64,000 nucleotides of DNA. It comes from Lama guanicoe. Its lineage: Eukaryota. Below, piece after piece: positions 7,477-16,644 of this stretch; within the stretch, counting starts at the first letter, position 1; each line of letters begins with the position of its first letter. Both the position numbers and the translations under genes were made by a program. The notes under the pieces were generated by a model. The model was not told the origin of the DNA. It ran no database searches and was given only the letters and a program-made list of their open reading frames with translations. The DNA lies in contig MU053881.1 in the NCBI GenBank assembly GCA_013239625.1, positions 15,926,373 through 15,990,372 on the forward strand. The letters are read 5' to 3'.

Positions 7477-7600
7477 AGGAGAGGGTGTATAGCTCAGTGG
7501 TAGAGAGCATGTGTTCAATCCCCAGTACCTCCGTTAAAATAAATAAATAAATAAACCTAATTACCCCCTCCTCCTGGTCCTCCTGCAAAGAAAGAAACAT
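7477..7600 (+). mobile_element. tRNA-derived SINE (Vic-1-like, internally deleted) just upstream of the BST2 promoter
   Basis: GGAGAGGGTGTATAGCTCAGTGGTAGAGAGCATG..TTCAATCCCCAGTACCTCC plus (AAAT)n tail, flanked by AGAAACAT direct repeats (TSD). Confidence 0.85.
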
Positions 7601-7736
7601 TTAAGAGAAGGGCAGGGACTTGAGATGGGGTGTCGCAGGCAGTCCTAGCTGCCCCTCCAAAGGATCTCATTGGCCAGCATCCAGCCCAGAAATCCCCAAG
7701 GCTATAATTTGGCAGAAACAACTCACCTTTTTTCTT

Positions 7737-7765
7737 GGGAAAATGAAAAAGGAAACCGAAACCTA
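7737..7765 (+). promoter_or_regulatory. ISRE/IRF element of the BST2 promoter
   Basis: GGGAAAATGAAAAAGGAAACCGAAACC contains GAAACCGAAAC (GAAANNGAAA consensus) plus a second tandem GAAA pair, ~200 bp upstream of the CDS. BST2 is a known interferon-stimulated gene. Confidence 0.8.
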
Positions 7766-7862
7766 AAGCCTGGGCTGTCCTCTGCCTGCAGATTTCACAT
7801 TCAACACCTCCAAGTCAGAGGACCCTCCCAGAACTCGTCATTGGTCAGCACAGCTCCTATGC

Positions 7863-7870
7863 TTATAAGG
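7863..7870 (+). promoter_or_regulatory. TATA-like box of BST2
   Basis: CTTATAAGGGG about 80 bp upstream of the coding start, preceded by a reverse CCAAT (ATTGG ~7840). Confidence 0.55.
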
Positions 7871-7974
7871 GGGCAGCCCCAGTCCACAGAAGGTTCCAGC
7901 GCCCTTCTCTAACTCCCATCCAAACTCCCTACTGGCAGATCTAGTTGGCACCCACTTTTTATCACTACAGCCCT

Positions 7975-9825
7975 ATGCCCATGCTCGACTACTGTTGGAA
8001 GTGGATGCAGGAGGACTGCAAGATGCCGAGATGGCTGAGGATTCTGCTGTTCCTGGTGGTGGTGGTGGTGGTGGTGGTGCTTCTGCTTGTGCCCTTGATC
8101 ATCTTCGCTATCAGGGCCAACAGCAAGAGCTGCATGGATGGCCTCCAAGCAGAGCAGGAGTGTCAGAACTCCACCAACCTCCTGCAGCAGCAGCTAACCC
8201 AGACCCAGGAAGTCTTACAGGAGACCAAAGCCCAGGCCACCATCTGCAACCAAACTGTGGTAAGCCACTGCACCCTCTAGAGCGCCCTGTGCTTGGGGCG
8301 CTCTCACAGGGCCTACATGGAGATCCATCAAGATAGACTTTGAAACTGCCCCTGGATATCCACACCACGGTTTGGGAACCTCTAAATTCTTCAGGGTGCT
8401 GCTGTCAGGGGGCCTTAAAAGTCTCCAGAGCACCCTAATCGGGGGTTTCAGCAACCCTGCTAGGATGTGGGGGGACTCTCCAATTTCCAGGGCACTGATT
8501 TGGGGGAGCTAGAAACTGCTCTCAGGCCCCAGTGTTGGGGGAGAAGTCCCCTCAAGGGATTGGGATGGGGACTTCACCAGGTCCCAGAGAAAGAAAGGGC
8601 TCTTGATACTTCCACTGCGTCTAGACAGACTTTGAAACCTTCACTTGCGTCCTGATGCAGGGGACCTTGACACTCCCATTGGACATGTAACTTTGGCTCC
8701 AAAATCCCCCTGGGTTCTGGTTTGGGGAGAACCTCTCAAGCTCCCTGGGCAATAGCCCAGGGGATCTGGAAATTTCTCCTAGAGTTTAGGCATTGGGAGC
8801 CTCCAAAGTCTCTTGTGGGGGGCCTCAAAACTCCCATTTTGAGGATCACAGTCTTATGGGTGGCCCTGGGAAGATGGGAAGTTGTGGCCATTCTTCAAGG
8901 TGGGAGACTGAGGTGCAGGGAGGGTTGGAGAGGAAACTGAAGAAGGGGTTGGACCTGAGCTCCTCTGACCCCAGGACCTAGGGAGGGATCCAGGACCCAA
9001 GGACAGAAGCCCGGTTCCTGACCCTCCCCTCTATCCCAGGAGACCCTGAGGGATTCTCTGGAGAAGGAGAAGGCTCTGGGTCGGGAGCAGCTGGCACATG
9101 TGGAGGAGCTTCAGGGTGAGCAAAGCACAAGTCCAGGGTCCCACGGAGGGGGCTCAGAGGGGTGGGCCAGGTATTGAAAAGGACTGGGGAGGGAAGGTCC
9201 CAGGGTTGGGGTCAGGAGAGAGGGCCCGGGCCAGAATCCAGTTGGAGGGGTGGGTAAGAGAGTGGGCCAGCTTTCCAAGCTGGGGCTGGAGGAGGGCAGG
9301 GTTGGAGGGGGTGGGGTCAGGCAAGGGGGGTGGCCACCGTGTCGACAGGGCCCCTGATTCTGTCTCCCCGCCACTCTCCACCAGATGAGGTCCTGACATT
9401 GAAACAGAAGCTCAACACTTTGGAGGAGGCAGAGCGACAAAGGTCCGAGATGACGCCCCTCAGGCCACGCCCCTTTCACCCCACCCCCAAGACTCTGGAC
9501 CCCTTTGGTTCGGAGAAACTCATCGTTGCTCAGGGAGCAAAGTTTAAAAGCCTCAGCCTTGTCCCTTGTGTCACACAGCCATGGGTTGGCCACTGCCCAC
9601 TCTCCTCCCCAGTGACTTGGTGGTGGGTGGAGGAGTGGAGATTCTTAGGGGAGAAGCCTAGAGCTGCTGGAGCCATCCAGCAGCTGCCAGAGTTGTCCCT
9701 ATCTCTACTCCAGAGAAAGAAGTGAGGCCTCAGCAGCTAACAGCTCTTCCAGCTGCTGGAGCATCCTGGGCTTCCTGATCACTCTGAACATGTTGAGCCT
9801 ATGCCTCAAGTCTTGGCAGGGCTGA
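7975..9825 (+). CDS. BST2: Bone marrow stromal antigen 2 / tetherin (CD317); 176 aa from the first ATG, 186 aa if the TTG at 7945 is used
   Basis: Exons 7975(7945)-8259, 9040-9115, 9385-9442, 9714-9825, all GT-AG, phases 0/1/2. Product: short cytoplasmic tail, TM helix, coiled coil with three Cys (ANSKSC, EQEC, ATICN) and two N-glycan sequons (NST, NQT), then a GPI-type signal (..AANSSSSCWSILGFLITLNMLSLCLKSWQG*). Donor at 9844/9845 and a non-coding last exon from 10082. Syntenic with CCDC194 and PLVAP. Confidence 0.95.
8056..8079 (+). repeat. (GTG)8 coding microsatellite, poly-Val in the BST2 TM helix
   Basis: Eight perfect in-frame GTG codons in ILLFL-V8-LLLVPLIIFAI. Confidence 0.95.
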
Positions 9826-10598
9826 GGTCCCAGGAAGCCGGCTGGTAAGGAGGGGAGTAGCCAGGGGGAGACGCTGGGAAGGGCCGGGAGTCAGGGATGG
9901 GTCAGGGCCTGGGCAGGTGACCTGTCTGCTGAGGTAGAGGGCTGGGCACAGAGGAGAAGGATCTTGGAGCGGGACAGAGAGCTCCCTGAGGAGGGAGGGG
10001 GCCCTGGAGCCGGGCGGGGCTTCGGAGAGGGCAGAGCCCATGTTCTGTCCACCTCTGAGTCCCTGTTTTGATGTTTTTTAGGCCACAACCTGGACTGGTC
10101 CGGTTCCCACTCAGCTTTGTCCTTCGAGGCTTCCTGACCTAGCCAGTCCTGAGGGGACCACATGGCAACATGGTTGGGGGGGTGGGGAATGGGGTGGCAG
10201 CAGGGGGTCCATGGGGCAGCTCCCGAGGGATGCCTTGGGAATGGAGACGTAGTGGAGTGGGCCCAAGGCTGCCCCAGAGCTGGGGAGGGCATGCAGAGTG
10301 CTTCTTGCTGTTACGGTTTCTAGAAGGTCACTTCCTTCTGGGCTCTTTGGGCCCCATTGAGGGGGGGAAAAACCTTACTCTGAAGTTTTTGGAGTATTAT
10401 TGCGCCACCCCAAGCATCTGGGACCTGCCCTGTGGGCAAGGGTGGACACCCATTGACATCTACCCCCAGCCTTCCCTGTTCTAGAATGTCCCCAGGAATC
10501 CCTGGGGTTCCAGCAGGCACCACTCCACTGCCTCCCCAGCCCTTTCCTCTGCTGGGATCATCCTAAAGGACTCTACACCCAGGTCAGTGCTCCCTGTC

Positions 10599-11185: not shown

Positions 11186-11914
11186 TGCCTGCAGAGTGGT
11201 CTACTCCCATCTCCTCACCAGATCTTCTCCTAATAACAGTGGTTCCAGGGGCAAACTGAGGCTTTGAAAGAGACACTTTGTCCTGGTTCCCAATCCCTTC
11301 CCACAGAAAGTTCAGGGCTCGGATTCAAATCTGGATCTGCAGACACATACAGACCAGGCCTGTGTCACAATGCCCCCCTCTTCTACATCCCCCAAACCCT
11401 TATTCATCCTGCAGTACCAAGCTCTGGGAGCTCCTCCTCCAGAGAGCCTCTCTGCTTCTCAAAATTGAGGGCTACGGTCTGACAGACCCTTTAACCCACT
11501 TTCTTGCATCCTCCCATGCCCCACAGTTCCCTCCTCTTCCTTCCTCTAAGTTCTCCTGGAATCCCAACTATTGTCCAGGCAGCTTCCTGTATGTGGCACT
11601 GGGGGTGGATGCTTGCATCTACCCAGAATTCCCAGAATTCTGCACTGCCCTCAGGTCCCATGGTCCCCACTCAGATGGTTGGTAGATTCCCCCTCTATGG
11701 CTTCTGCTGTCCTCCTAAGGACCCCCAAACACCATCCCTGCCACAGGCCCTCTGACCCCCTTGTCCCCTAACTTCCCCTTGCTCCAACCCCCCTCCTCCT
11801 GCCCCAATCATTTCTCTGGAACTTTGTCAAGTTCCCTCCTGCCTCACAGCCTTGACTAGTGAGCAGCTCCTCCTGCTAGGGACACCCATTCTTCACTCTG
11901 AAGTTTGAGGGCAA

Positions 11915-12140
11915 GGTTTCTCAGCCTCAGAATCCTTGACATTTGGGGTCGGATTGTTCTCTGCGTTGGGGGCCGTCCTGTGCACTGTAGGATGTTAGCA
12001 GCATCCCTGGCCCCCACCCTCTAGATGCCCATAACACCTTACCCCCAGGATGTGGCAACAACAACAAAAAATGACTCCAGACATTACCAAGTTCTCTTTT
12101 TCCCCGGGGAGGTGGGAGCAGAATCAATTCCAGTGAAAAC
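11915..12140. mobile_element. MER20-like DNA transposon relic
   Basis: GTTTCTCAGCCTCAG...GACATTTGGGGTCGGATTGTTCTCTG...CCTGTGCACTGTAGGATGTTAGCAGCATCCCTGGCC...AAAAATGACTCCAGACATTACCAA. Confidence 0.75.
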
Positions 12141-13973
12141 GTCAGCTATAGAGGGCAAGTCTTGGGTCCCCCTCACTTCTGTCGGAGCCCTCACAGAATC
12201 CCTTTACAATGACTGAGTCACTTCACATTCCCTTCAATAGCCCCATCTAACAGATGAGGAAACTGAGGTCCAGAGAAGTGATTGGACTTGCTCAGGGTTT
12301 CTCAGCTGCTCAGACTATGGAATCCTCTGCTTCCAGCAGGTTCTCTCAATTGCCAGTAAGCAAGCCATTCTCACATGACCTCAGTCCATTCCCACCCACA
12401 CCCAACATCCTCCACCCCAACTCCCAACTTGGGCTACTGGAATGTCCCCAAACAGCACTGCCCCACCACATCTGAGCTGTGTCTCGCTGATGGAGGGAGA
12501 CAGGTTTGCCAAAGATCATGGGTTCAACCTGCTCAGTTTCTCCCTCCACCCCGCACAAGGGCCGGGGTATAAACTTCTCTCTTTCCAAAAAATGCCCCTC
12601 TTCCCTGGCTGGCTGTGACTCAGCCAGGGGTTGAGAAGTCAGGACTAAGGGGTGCTACAGGTCTGGGGGGGTAGGGGGTGGTCCAGCTCCAATAGGAATC
12701 TGGCAGGGACCAGCAGCTGCTGTGTGTCCCTGGCCTGAGACTTGGCCTCTCTGGGCAGTTTCTTTATGTGACGTGGGAGGCAGGGAGGGACACAGATTCT
12801 AGTTCACATTTATTACATAACTGCTGTGCTCCAGGTCCATGCCATGGCAGAGGGAAGGAGGCTTTGCGGGCTTTGCCTTTTAGGGGCTCACCCAGTCTGA
12901 TGGGGGAGGTAGCCAGGAACCAAACACATAAGATATAAAACTACAGCAGAGCTGAGGAAACTGATCCAAAGCAGCCTGACTTAATGGGGAAGGGGGAGAG
13001 TTCTGGAGGAGGAGGTACTCTGGTAGACAGGGGAGAGCTGGTAAGGAAGAGTTAGCTGGGCAAAGAGAGAGGATAGGGCCCTCAGGCAGAGGGAACAACC
13101 AATGCAAAAGCCCTGGGGTAGGAATGCACTTGCCTGAAGACTGTTGAAGGCTGGAGGGAGTCGGCAGGAGGAAATGACATCAAATACTTGCTAGGGGCCT
13201 TGCAGGGGAAGGAGGAAGAGAAGGGGGAAGGATTAAGAAATGGGGAAGGGTAGAGGGAAAATGGGAAGATGGTGGGGAGACAAGGGGGAAAGTAGGGTGA
13301 GCGAAGAGGAGGAAGGGAGATGGCAATGGAGGAGGGCCAGGAGGAGATGAAGGGGGATGAGGGCCCAAGGGGAAGAGGAGGATTTGATTTGCCACAGGGA
13401 AGGGAAGTTAGGGGAAGGGGATAAGCTGGCCTAGATTCACGTTGTAAGTTTGCCCCCTGGTGGCCTAGTGGAGAACAGTCAGGGAGATGGGTCCTGTCCA
13501 TCCTTGCATCTACCCTCTGGCCCTCACAGCAGGTCACAAAAAGTGTGGCAGCTGGAGCCAGGCTGACTTCAGTTGCTCAAGTAGCCTCAGTTTCTTCATG
13601 AACAGAGTGGGGACAATATACCCCTAGACATTCGCAGAGCATCCTCCTGTGGAAGTGAGTGCTATGTGCAGATGTGCTCATGTGATTCCCAATAAACCCA
13701 GTAGGGGCAGGAGCTGCTGTCGTCTTAACTTCACAGAGAGGGAAACTGAGTCTCAGAGGACAGCACATGGGATGCAGAAGCGAGACTGGAACCCAGGACC
13801 CCCAAGTCCCGTCCTGGGCTCGAGTAGCCTGGACTTGCCCCTGGCGCAGGTCCAGCCCCTCCCAACAAACTAGAAGCCACCGCCAGGCGGGGCGGAACCG
13901 TGGGTGTCCCTGGCTCCCCAAGGTGCCAATTAAATGCTCGTGGCCGTCTGGGGTTGGAGCTGTGGACGGCGGC

Positions 13974-16644
13974 ATGGCCGAGCAGGGGCCGGAGCCGGGA
14001 CGCGCATGGCGGGTGTTTGCCCTCTGCGGGGCCGCTGTATTTCTGGCAGCGGTGGCCGCCGGAGCAGCCCTACTGGCCTGGAATCTGGCCGCCTCGGCCT
14101 CCCGGAAGCCTCGCTGCCCAGAACCAGGGACCAACACCACGGTGCCGCCTGGGGACCCGGCGCCCGAAGTCGAGGAGCTGCGGCGGCGGCTGGCAGAGGC
14201 GGCCCAGCGCGAGGAGGCCCTGACCAGGCAGCTGAACCAGGCCGAGAGTGTCCGTGGGCAGCTGGAGGAGGCCCTAAGGGCCTGTGAGGGCCGCCAGGTA
14301 CGTGGGTAGGGTGGGGTGCTGGGAAATTCAGGCTTTGGGGGAAGAGGGCTTACATACATCCCCAGGGTCCCTCCCCTGGGCCTTGGTTTCCTCAGTTCTT
14401 CAACTGAGGGAGGCAAATGAGAATAGCACCGTAATTCCTTCCAGCTCCTACATTGCCAGTTCATCCTTGAGTCTACCTTCTGACCAAGAAGGCTCCACTC
14501 TTCTCTGCTATTTGCCAGGTCAATGGTCGGTAGTTAGGGAAGCCCCAGACCCCTGAGCCCACCTGGGGAGGCCCTGAGCTAACCCTCCCCCCAGACACCC
14601 ACTCAACACTCCTCCCCAACCCTCCATTACCCTAGCCCGGCCCGTGTCCAGCAGCCCTATTTCAAGATAGGGACATTCAAGTCACCTGTAATTAAGAGGC
14701 TAAAGTTGGCCTCTTGGGGGAGGTACCAGCCAGGTCCTCCCTTTTCCTCTTGCCACCTCCTTCAGACTCTTTCTTAACCCTTCCCAGCCCTGGGCCTCAC
14801 AGAAAAACCATCCTCAAAGTCCCAACCATTCACATTTATTGAGTAACTACTGCATACCTCTGTGTACCCCGCCCAGTAGTGGTTGGGCAGTGTGTGAATT
14901 TTAGAAACTGAAACTTGCCTCTCCTGCCTGCCTAAGTGAAGTACCTGGGGCAGCCAAGTTAAAGGCAATCTGCCCTGGGTTCAAATTCTGGCTCTGCCCC
15001 TCTATTGAAGATTCTCTGAGGAAGTCAGGCCAGTTGGTTTGCAGAATGTCTCACAGAAGTGACTAAGGATACCCTAGAAACCCAACATTGTCAAACACCA
15101 AATTGGCTTGTGTTCGTTTAAAATCCATCGGCAAGTCTACAGCTAGGATTGGAACCAGTGTCTGTCGGCAGAGCTAAACCTTTTCTACATCCCGTTGATC
15201 TGGAGTGGGGATTGGTGGACCTGGGCAGAGATCTCCTTCCAGTCAGGCACCAGTCACCACTTCGTACCCCAGACTTCAGAGACCACTTCCGTGTTTTACA
15301 ATTACAGGACCTTCAAGGACATTGCAAATAAAGCTTAAGGAACATTAGTGTCGTCTCAGTCTCCCCTAGAAGGGGCGGGGCCAATTCACTCCTTCTCCCA
15401 TTCCCTCTACCCGCCTCATTTCCTCTCCACTCTGCAGAGTCGGCTTCAGACCCAACTGATGACACTGAAGACTGAGATGGACGAGGCCAAGGCACAGGGG
15501 ACCCAGATGGGGGCTGAGAACGGGGCGCTGACAGGTGTGTTGGGGTGCAAAGGAATGGGCAGGGTTAGAGGTGAGAGGAGCCTAGAAGGTTCCTACCTAC
15601 GCAAATGACTTGCACAGGTGCAATCGCACAGGTGCAAACATAAAGCAAATGAACACGGAAACTTGTGAAAGAAATGCACATAATATGCAAAGGTTCTGCA
15701 AATGTCACAAAACAATGCAAATGCAACAAAATACGCACACGCCATGTAAGGACTCCCCAAAGCAATGTAAACCTATGAAAAGCTATGCAAATGGCACGTG
15801 AAGGTCATGCAAACAGCACACAAACTTAATTCAAATAAAACAAATTACGCAAGTAGTTGGTAGACTATAAACTTGGAGCGGATGTGCGCGGGGCGAGAGC
15901 CTGATCTCCAACCTTATCGGGTTCCCTGCACCCGCAGAAGCCCTGGCGCGCTGGGAGGCGGCGGCCACCGAGTCTGCGCAACGGCTGGACGAGGCACAGC
16001 GGCGCGCACGCGCGGCCGAGGCCGAGGGTGAAGCCTGCGCAGCCCGGGAGGCGGCGCTGCGCGAACGCGTGTGAGTGAGGCCGGGGTCGGAAGGGGCGGG
16101 GGAGTGGGCCGTGTGGGCGGGGCCTTGGGAGGGGCGAAGTTAAGGTGCTGGAGTAGAACCTGGGGGTGGTGACGCAAGGCGGGCTCTTAGGGGGCGGGAA
16201 GCCCTGGTTGAGGCGGACACTCTGAAGGCTTGGTTTCCTGGAGTTGGGGGCATCGTGGGGGCTTCGGGGAGGGCGAGGAGTGAAGTGAGGGTGCAAGAAA
16301 AAGCGAATATCGAGGGAGGGGCTTGGGGCCTGGAGGCGGAGCTTCTGGGAAAAAGTTTGGGAGTCCCTGGGGAGGGGCCTGGAAATGGCCAGGGGTGGAG
16401 CATGGGATCTCTGAGGAGTGGGGTTCCCAGGAAGGGCGAAAGAATGCTGGAGAGTCTCCAGGTGCTGACAGGTCCCTTCCCCCTTCCCGGCAGTAACGCC
16501 CTGGAAGCCCAGATGGGCCCCCAGCGCAGACTGCCACACCCACGGACCCGCTCGGGGTCCCGACCCCGGCCGAGCCCCCGATCGCGCTCTCGCCCGGGAA
16601 CATCGGGAAGCTGCCGGCGACCAGCGAGGCGCGCACGAGGGTGA
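13974..16644 (+). CDS. CCDC194: Coiled-coil domain-containing protein 194 (TM-CC(aT), tetherin-adjacent), 234 aa
   Basis: Exons 13974-14297, 15438-15534, 15938-16070, 16494-16644 (705 nt, GT-AG, phases 0/1/2). MAEQGPEPGRAWRVFALCGAAVFLAAVAAGAALLAWNLA (TM), then a coiled coil and an Arg/Ser/Pro-rich tail. Lies between BST2 and PLVAP. Confidence 0.92.

Follow-up and report, generated by a model that had tools for sequence, protein, structure and literature searches.

The question raised by the BST2 locus of the guanaco is whether this gene, which encodes tetherin, can still produce the long isoform with its N-terminal YxY motif, and, if not, from which codon its protein would begin. The locus lies in a stretch of 64,000 nucleotides (nt) of Lama guanicoe (assembly GCA_013239625.1, contig MU053881.1, positions 15,926,373 to 15,990,372), hereafter the window, and the features of the gene described here are on its + strand. 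In exon 1 of the gene an in-frame TAG (7942..7944) directly precedes a TTG (7945..7947; context tagTTGg, with T at -3 and G, base 7948, at +4), which is followed by the codons GCA CCC ACT TTT TAT CAC TAC AGC CCT ATG CCC ATG, the frame reading *-L-APTFYHYSPMPM and staying open up to the GT donor at 8260. The initial annotation had given this codon order and the G at +4 and had taken the gene for a probably camelid tetherin that had lost the AUG of its long isoform; every letter could be confirmed in the window, the nearest protein model is that of the alpaca (Vicugna pacos, P0013), and the loss of the AUG is borne out by the comparisons below. Our results make it likely that the single-copy BST2 of this New World camelid lost its ancestral ATG before Old and New World camelids split and now makes mainly short-tailed tetherins.

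The placement of the former start codon follows from the alignment of 13 BST2 proteins to the window by tblastn, in which residue 1 (Met) of eight proteins, among them two deer, pig and warthog models, a hamster and a bat, is the partner of TTG 7945. Three cetacean models beginning MVDHLNES align from 7981, one further protein from 7957 and the alpaca model from 8134. The resemblance is not accidental, and since Met1 of the homologues falls on 7945, the TTG is placed by homology at the Met1 position of tetherin and the ATG at 7981 at that of Met13. The intervening codons specific to the long isoform, APTFYHYSP (7948..7974, with YHY at 7960-7968), persist as a relic that is now most likely within the 5′ untranslated region (5′UTR), as is the TAG adjoining the former start codon, which bars extension from any upstream ATG, as had been proposed.

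An assembly or sequencing error at 7945, raised as a concern when the TTG was first annotated, found no support, and its probability is practically negligible. An independent DNA run with another organism label (X6) yields one contig over 7561-8041 that differs from the window only at 7845, 7901 and 7982 and by a 9-base deletion at 7569, so that its letters within 7942-7947, TAG included, are identical to those of the window. A second DNA run, X2, spans 7561-8041 as well, with 9 differences, and is not counted as support. The comparison of exon 1 among camelids, which had also been suggested, places Leu at the Met1 position in the NCBI protein models of three of three Camelus species (C. ferus P0014, C. 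bactrianus P0029 and C. dromedarius P0028), which read ...QTPY(W/R)QIW-L-APTFYHYSPMPM, and the alpaca NCBI model likewise does not start at 7945; other Camelus models (P0015 and P0016) begin at MPMLDC. The Leu/TTG state at Met1 is thus found in four camelid species, that of the window and three of Camelus. Because Leu is common to all three Camelus species, the change is seen as old and camelid-wide rather than a quirk of one species, and because the window shares it, comparison of the sequences dates the ATG to TTG point change before the split of Old and New World camelids, 11-25 million years ago (PMC4884201). The TAG at 7942-7944 was probably derived later, in New World camelids, because the read-through models of Camelus, cetaceans and rhinoceros have Trp in its place.

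Whether ribosomes could meet any AUG before the relic depends on where the mRNA begins. Two RNA runs, X15 (5′-capture RNA) and X18, carry Camelus-type alleles, with 8135 T>A (Met to Lys), 8189 A>G, 8206 C>G and a one-base deletion at 7746. The summed depth of X15 rises from 349 over 7731-7815 to 8,556 over 7816-7900 and 170,275 over 7901-7985, and one of its contigs has a loose end at 7891 that reads TTTCTTATATGGGG. According to bioRxiv 10.1101/2021.04.04.438388, 5′ single-cell libraries use TTTCTTATATGGG as their template-switch oligonucleotide, and capped RNA is marked by an additional G that the genome does not encode; since the oligonucleotide and an unencoded G abut 7891, together with the step in depth, the cap site is placed at about 7891. 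Strand invasion is an unlikely source of this end, because the 13 bases upstream of 7891 are unlike the oligonucleotide when compared to the strand-invasion criterion in the same text. The cap site lies about 27 nt after a TATA box matched by pattern (TATAAG, 7864..7869), which is 81 nt upstream of 7945, and about 54 nt before 7945 itself; for human tetherin PMC3989765 gives a transcription start site 51 nt and a TATA-like box 81 nt before the start codon. Further upstream, a pattern scan finds a motif resembling an interferon-stimulated response element (ISRE) in the promoter (GAAACCGAAAC, 7752..7762). From 7880 to 7975 no ATG occurs in any frame before that at 7975. A SINE-like (short interspersed nuclear element), tRNA-derived element with an (AAAT)n tail lies at 7480-7556, ~340 bp upstream of the cap site.

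An upstream exon or alternative promoter could nevertheless provide an AUG in frame that is joined to the gene past the TAG, one candidate being the acceptor-like ...tttttatcactacAG at 7969-7970. An old ab initio C. ferus model (P0027) does join promoter sequence to ...C-PMPMLD at this AG, and a low-depth contig of X15 passes through the promoter into exon 1. The initial annotation had regarded such an exon as fatal to its claim, and none was seen: in the Camelus-type contigs of the two RNA runs neither a joint nor a loose end occurs within 7891-8096 at very high depth. Furthermore, a splice at 7969-7970 would remove the YxY codons 7960-7968, so that the long isoform would not be restored, and in the window frame 0 is shut by the TAG at 7942 and a TGA at 7744. 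Rescue by an upstream exon is accordingly judged extremely unlikely.

The reading of a lost ATG leaves four in-frame ATGs downstream of the relic, which had been listed before and are confirmed in the sequence, and only the last of them has A at -3. The first AUG of the mRNA (7975..7977, codon 11, weak context agccctATGc, 176 amino acids) is the proposed main start; it is specific to camelids, since in the alignment they have Met at codon 11, where deer and cetaceans have Val and the pig has Leu. The second (7981..7983, weak context atgcccATGc, 174 amino acids) is the equivalent of the conserved Met13, the start of s-tetherin. The third (8005..8007, context aagtggATGc) would give 166 amino acids and is Met in Camelus as well (KLMQ), and the fourth (8023..8025, context tgcaagATGc, A at -3) would give 160 amino acids and is Leu in Camelus. 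The first two ATGs after the cap site, 7975 and 7981, are both in frame and both past YHY, and since no AUG lies ahead of 7975 after the cap site, the start is expected at 7975 or 7981.

Taken together, we propose that an ATG to TTG change before the divergence of Old and New World lineages would have left transcription starting ~54 nt upstream of 7945, from the promoter with the TATA box and ISRE-like motif, that scanning ribosomes would pass the UUG with its T at -3 and G at +4, and that initiation would take place at AUG 7975 or 7981, both of weak context, while some ribosomes would leak through to 8005 and 8023. The main products would then be tetherins of 176 and 174 amino acids that lack the N-terminal YxY clathrin-adaptor motif but retain the membrane-spanning helix, the coiled-coil ectodomain linked by cysteines and a putative anchor signal at the C-terminus, and, by analogy with the NZW mouse, the cat and human s-tetherin, the short camelid tetherin would be expected to stay longer on the cell surface. 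We infer the choice of start codon and all functional consequences from the sequence. The link between the YxY motif and NF-kB signalling given in the initial annotation should not be carried over, since according to a review virus sensing by tetherin has been shown only for the human protein and, to a lesser degree, that of the chimpanzee.

Two observations concern these start codons. In X6, 7982 T>G turns the Met13-equivalent ATG into AGG, so that 7975 remains as the near-N-terminal start in that animal. In addition, an out-of-frame ATG at 8031-8033 lies in a stronger Kozak context (gccgagATGg) than any other in the region and opens a Gly/Pro-rich frame of 102 codons on the spliced mRNA; ribosomes that miss all four in-frame AUGs, which are weak, could end up at this ATG.

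Apart from its start codon the gene is intact and present in a single copy. Exon 1 (7891..8259), bounded by the 5′ RNA end and the GT donor at 8260, contains the 5′UTR, the relic codons, the cytoplasmic tail, the transmembrane helix and the first part of the ectodomain; exon 2 (9040..9115) and exon 3 (9385..9442) have AG/GT borders, and the coding part of exon 4 (9714..9825, from alignment and RNA) encodes a Ser-rich stretch and a hydrophobic C-terminus ending at the TGA 9823-9825. All three introns are GT..AG, and identical three joints, among them 8259/9040 and 9115/9385, are present in the Camelus-type RNA of X15 and X18. The open frame comprises 186 codons counted from TTG, and the product has a 22-residue tail and a hydrophobic segment of 24 consecutive residues (ILLFLVVVVVVVVLLLVPLIIFAI, 8041..8112) aligned with the transmembrane segment of the homologues, the short N-terminal tail and single helix corresponding by alignment to a type II layout. 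Three cysteines are kept at the invariant alignment columns C58, C68 and C96, as are two N-x-S/T sequons, NST and NQT, and the Ser-rich stretch followed by the hydrophobic end (..NSSSSCWSILGFLITLNMLSLCLKSWQG) is a candidate glycosylphosphatidylinositol-anchor signal. Exon 1 from 7975 matches the Pfam family BST2 (PF16716) with 64.7 bits (E 1.3e-17; cutoff 27), and the alpaca model with 93.7 bits. The alpaca model is 100% identical over the covered part of exon 1 and differs by 1 residue in exon 4, and the Camelus models share 74-75% identity over exon 1. We also considered, and rejected, that a further copy of BST2 might carry an intact ATG, as is the case in ruminants: the tblastn search of the window found one locus, and a six-frame, exon-wise search of the 2.05 Gb assembly (55,231 contigs; 13 scored candidates), which would miss a copy lying in a gap, returned a single exon-1 match.

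The loss of a start codon could also be the first step of pseudogenization, with the gene decaying and its tail under relaxed constraint, and the divergence between the window and the Camelus protein models bears on this. Residue differences amount to 8-9 of 22 in the retained tail and 5 of 24, plus a 2-residue gap, in the membrane segment, compared to 5-6 of 49 in the exon-1 ectodomain, 4-5 of 81 in exons 2-4, 0 of 10 in the relic codons and 1-2 of 18 in the 5′UTR read as codons. This strong dissimilarity of the tail and transmembrane region, together with public models that disagree in four different N-termini, could be taken for decay. Intron and promoter contigs, however, differ from the Camelus type at 2.9% of sites, a rate at which ~1.9 changes are expected in the 66 nt of the tail, and at least 8 are seen (Poisson P ~8e-4; a protein-based minimum, uncorrected for local differences in rate), so that the tail changes surpass the neutral expectation, which relaxed constraint alone does not give. 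The 176-codon frame has moreover stayed open in Old and New World camelids alike since their separation 11-25 million years ago (PMC4884201), the splice sites are all intact and used, the RNA reaches very high depth, cysteines and sequons have been preserved, and exons 2-4 have changed in only 4-5 of 81 residues. Decay of the gene is for these reasons regarded as very improbable. The excess in the tail, whose charge is altered between New and Old World camelids (QEDCK vs QRGRK), beside an unremarkable relic fits a functional protein with a translated tail in an arms race rather than a pseudogene, and the pattern of changes suggests that the retained tail and membrane segment are under positive or diversifying selection. 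The second N-glycosylation sequon of tetherin appears, from the models compared, to have disappeared in Old World camels, with ICIQSV in all Camelus models against ICNQTV in the window (NQT, 8249-8257) and other mammals.

The remaining alternative to mainly short-tailed products is that the YxY-bearing long isoform is still made through UUG 7945, in low or stress-regulated but biologically relevant amounts. UUG belongs to the weaker near-cognate start codons. At this site it has G at +4 and no competing upstream AUG, and the 10 codons up to the first AUG form an open frame with the same residues in Old and New World camelids, whereas the T at -3 forms a context that, according to PMC3460627, is leaky even for the AUG of human tetherin. 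The conservation of the relic was rejected as a sign of translation, since 0 changes compare to 0.87 expected, a comparison of no statistical power (P(0) = 0.42), and the flanking untranslated leader is equally conserved. A UUG-favouring hairpin was likewise rejected, the structure predicted at 7958-8040 (-24.7 kcal/mol) being no stabler than shuffles (z -1.42; 20 of 200 fold as well). We therefore consider production of the long isoform from the UUG unlikely. A more specific form of this idea, which we hold to be decidedly unlikely, is that UUG 7945 might serve as a start at a low basal frequency, with more initiation there as start stringency drops in infected, interferon-exposed cells; if true, endocytosis-competent tetherin with YxY would appear only under stress, through a near-cognate-codon switch kept for >11 million years.

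Several points weigh against the preferred interpretation of an ancient ATG loss with mainly short-tailed products. The 5′ end and splices were mapped on the Old World orthologue, the RNA being Camelus-type, and the cap site was placed from the loose end of one contig and a depth step in assembled contigs. The low-depth contig of X15 (349) that runs from 7578 into exon 1 represents either rare upstream transcripts or DNA carry-over. The Met1 codon of Camelus is known as Leu from protein models only; these proteins also imply a DNA difference at 7943, and run X15 was left aside for the Camelus letters at 7943 and 7945. The unchanged relic codons would also fit purifying selection on a peptide started at UUG, with a test that is powerless at P(0) = 0.42, and which of these codons, the UUG or one of the AUGs, would serve as the start is a prediction from sequence.

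Short-only tetherin is known from other mammals, and the camelid gene is a further independent case of a recurrent state. The review PMC3989765 names cats, guinea-pigs, horses and elephants as such species. When examined as in the cat, the NZW mouse and the bat Taphozous melanopogon, the camelid gene has a Met1 codon that is not ATG and keeps the Met13 AUG, and the sole preceding AUG is in frame and after YxY. In the NZW/LacJ mouse, according to PMC3310811, ATG>GTG raises the surface level and strengthens Friend virus restriction; the single-base loss of Met1, the deletion of the dual-tyrosine motif by use of downstream ATGs and an otherwise intact gene are alike in both, but the mouse allele is a strain polymorphism with measured effects, whereas the camelid TTG is fixed family-wide and known from sequence. 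The cat resembles camelids in that its upstream start codon is mutated throughout the lineage and the short form alone is expected (PMC3989765, citing Celestino et al. 2012), but this is an independent event in Carnivora with a much shorter tail, studied with feline immunodeficiency virus (FIV) Env and human immunodeficiency virus type 1 (HIV-1) Vpu, according to the same review. T. melanopogon has ATG>CTG plus a TAG and is predicted to be short-only; it shares with camelids a near-cognate Leu codon at Met1 and a nearby in-frame TAG, yet the bat TAG lies between the two start sites and blocks near-cognate initiation, whereas the camelid TAG precedes the TTG, and the path from UUG to the tail stays open. 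In humans the Met13 start of s-tetherin is used by leaky scanning, as stated in PMC3460627, and the short form has the same downstream Met start (7981), no YxY and a pyrimidine at -3 of the upstream site; unlike camelids, which have no long-form AUG and an extra AUG at 7975 two codons earlier, humans make both forms from one mRNA. Our literature search found no paper on a start loss in camelid tetherin, with figures and supplements (Fig. 1A of PMC3989765, Fig. S1 of PMC3460627) beyond its reach, and a 2026 review of camelid immunity mentions neither BST2 nor tetherin.

A profile search for BST2 returned 151 proteins at E <= 1e-5, and N-termini were compared for 131 proteins. Among these, seven cetacean models, from both toothed and baleen whales, begin at MVDHLNES, the Met13 equivalent, and three cetacean read-through models (Kogia, Physeter and one further) have Arg at Met1, with Met13 replaced by Thr as well in Kogia and Physeter. 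The read-through model of the black rhinoceros has Val at Met1 (cetacean and rhinoceros models P0008-P0010, P0018-P0020, P0033, P0035, P0037, P0098 and P0045, aligned to window 7945-7983), and felid models begin past the YxY position, while MAPxxYxY is kept in pigs, deer, seals, bears, most bats and rodents. Judged from these models, cetacean BST2 also seems to be without Met1, and the different replacements across lineages, Arg in cetaceans, Val in rhinoceros and Leu in camelids, would fit independent losses. No paper on a loss of Met1 in cetaceans was found by the literature search; BST2 is named once, as a rapidly evolving gene, in PMC8949644. Our results suggest that a whole family can be added to the lineages without the long isoform, with similar states reached by different mutations in cetaceans and rhinoceros, and strengthen the view that the loss of the YxY tail is recurrent and possibly adaptive.

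The current public models of camelid BST2 are wrong or inconsistent. Those of Camelus (P0014, P0028 and P0029; 246-251 amino acids) take an ATG within the ISRE region as their first codon and include the promoter in the translation, running straight through the ISRE-like motif and reading the TATA box as ...YAYKG...; the one-base deletion at 7746 in Camelus-type RNA creates this upstream frame, which is shut in the window by an extra A near 7746, with the TGA at 7744 and the TAG at 7942 in frame 0. The alpaca model has 123 amino acids and starts with MDGLQ, past the membrane helix, and P0016 and the further Camelus model P0017 fuse BST2 with CCDC194. Cloning of camelid tetherin would thus need a start at 7975/7981. 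Tetherin restricts many enveloped viruses, and its N-terminal tail is the site at which viral antagonists and the endocytic machinery act; since some viruses of concern have their reservoirs or hosts among camelids, a constitutively short, surface-retained tetherin would bear on work on virus–host relationships.

The transmembrane helix exceeds its Camelus counterpart by 2 residues, and within it an eight-unit trinucleotide repeat at 8054-8077 codes for Val8. All DNA contigs break at 8042-8094, over this repeat, the length of which may be polymorphic, and the repeat may be the cause of the truncated alpaca model. Past the stop codon, 238 bases at 9843-10080 are skipped by the Camelus-type RNA contigs of both runs, with non-canonical ends TG..TA and one C between, and the New World DNA runs are colinear there; the two camelid lineages probably differ here by an indel in the 3′UTR, and not by an intron. 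Directly downstream of BST2, exons of CCDC194 follow on the + strand at 11416-15990 (from ~11.4 to 16 kb).

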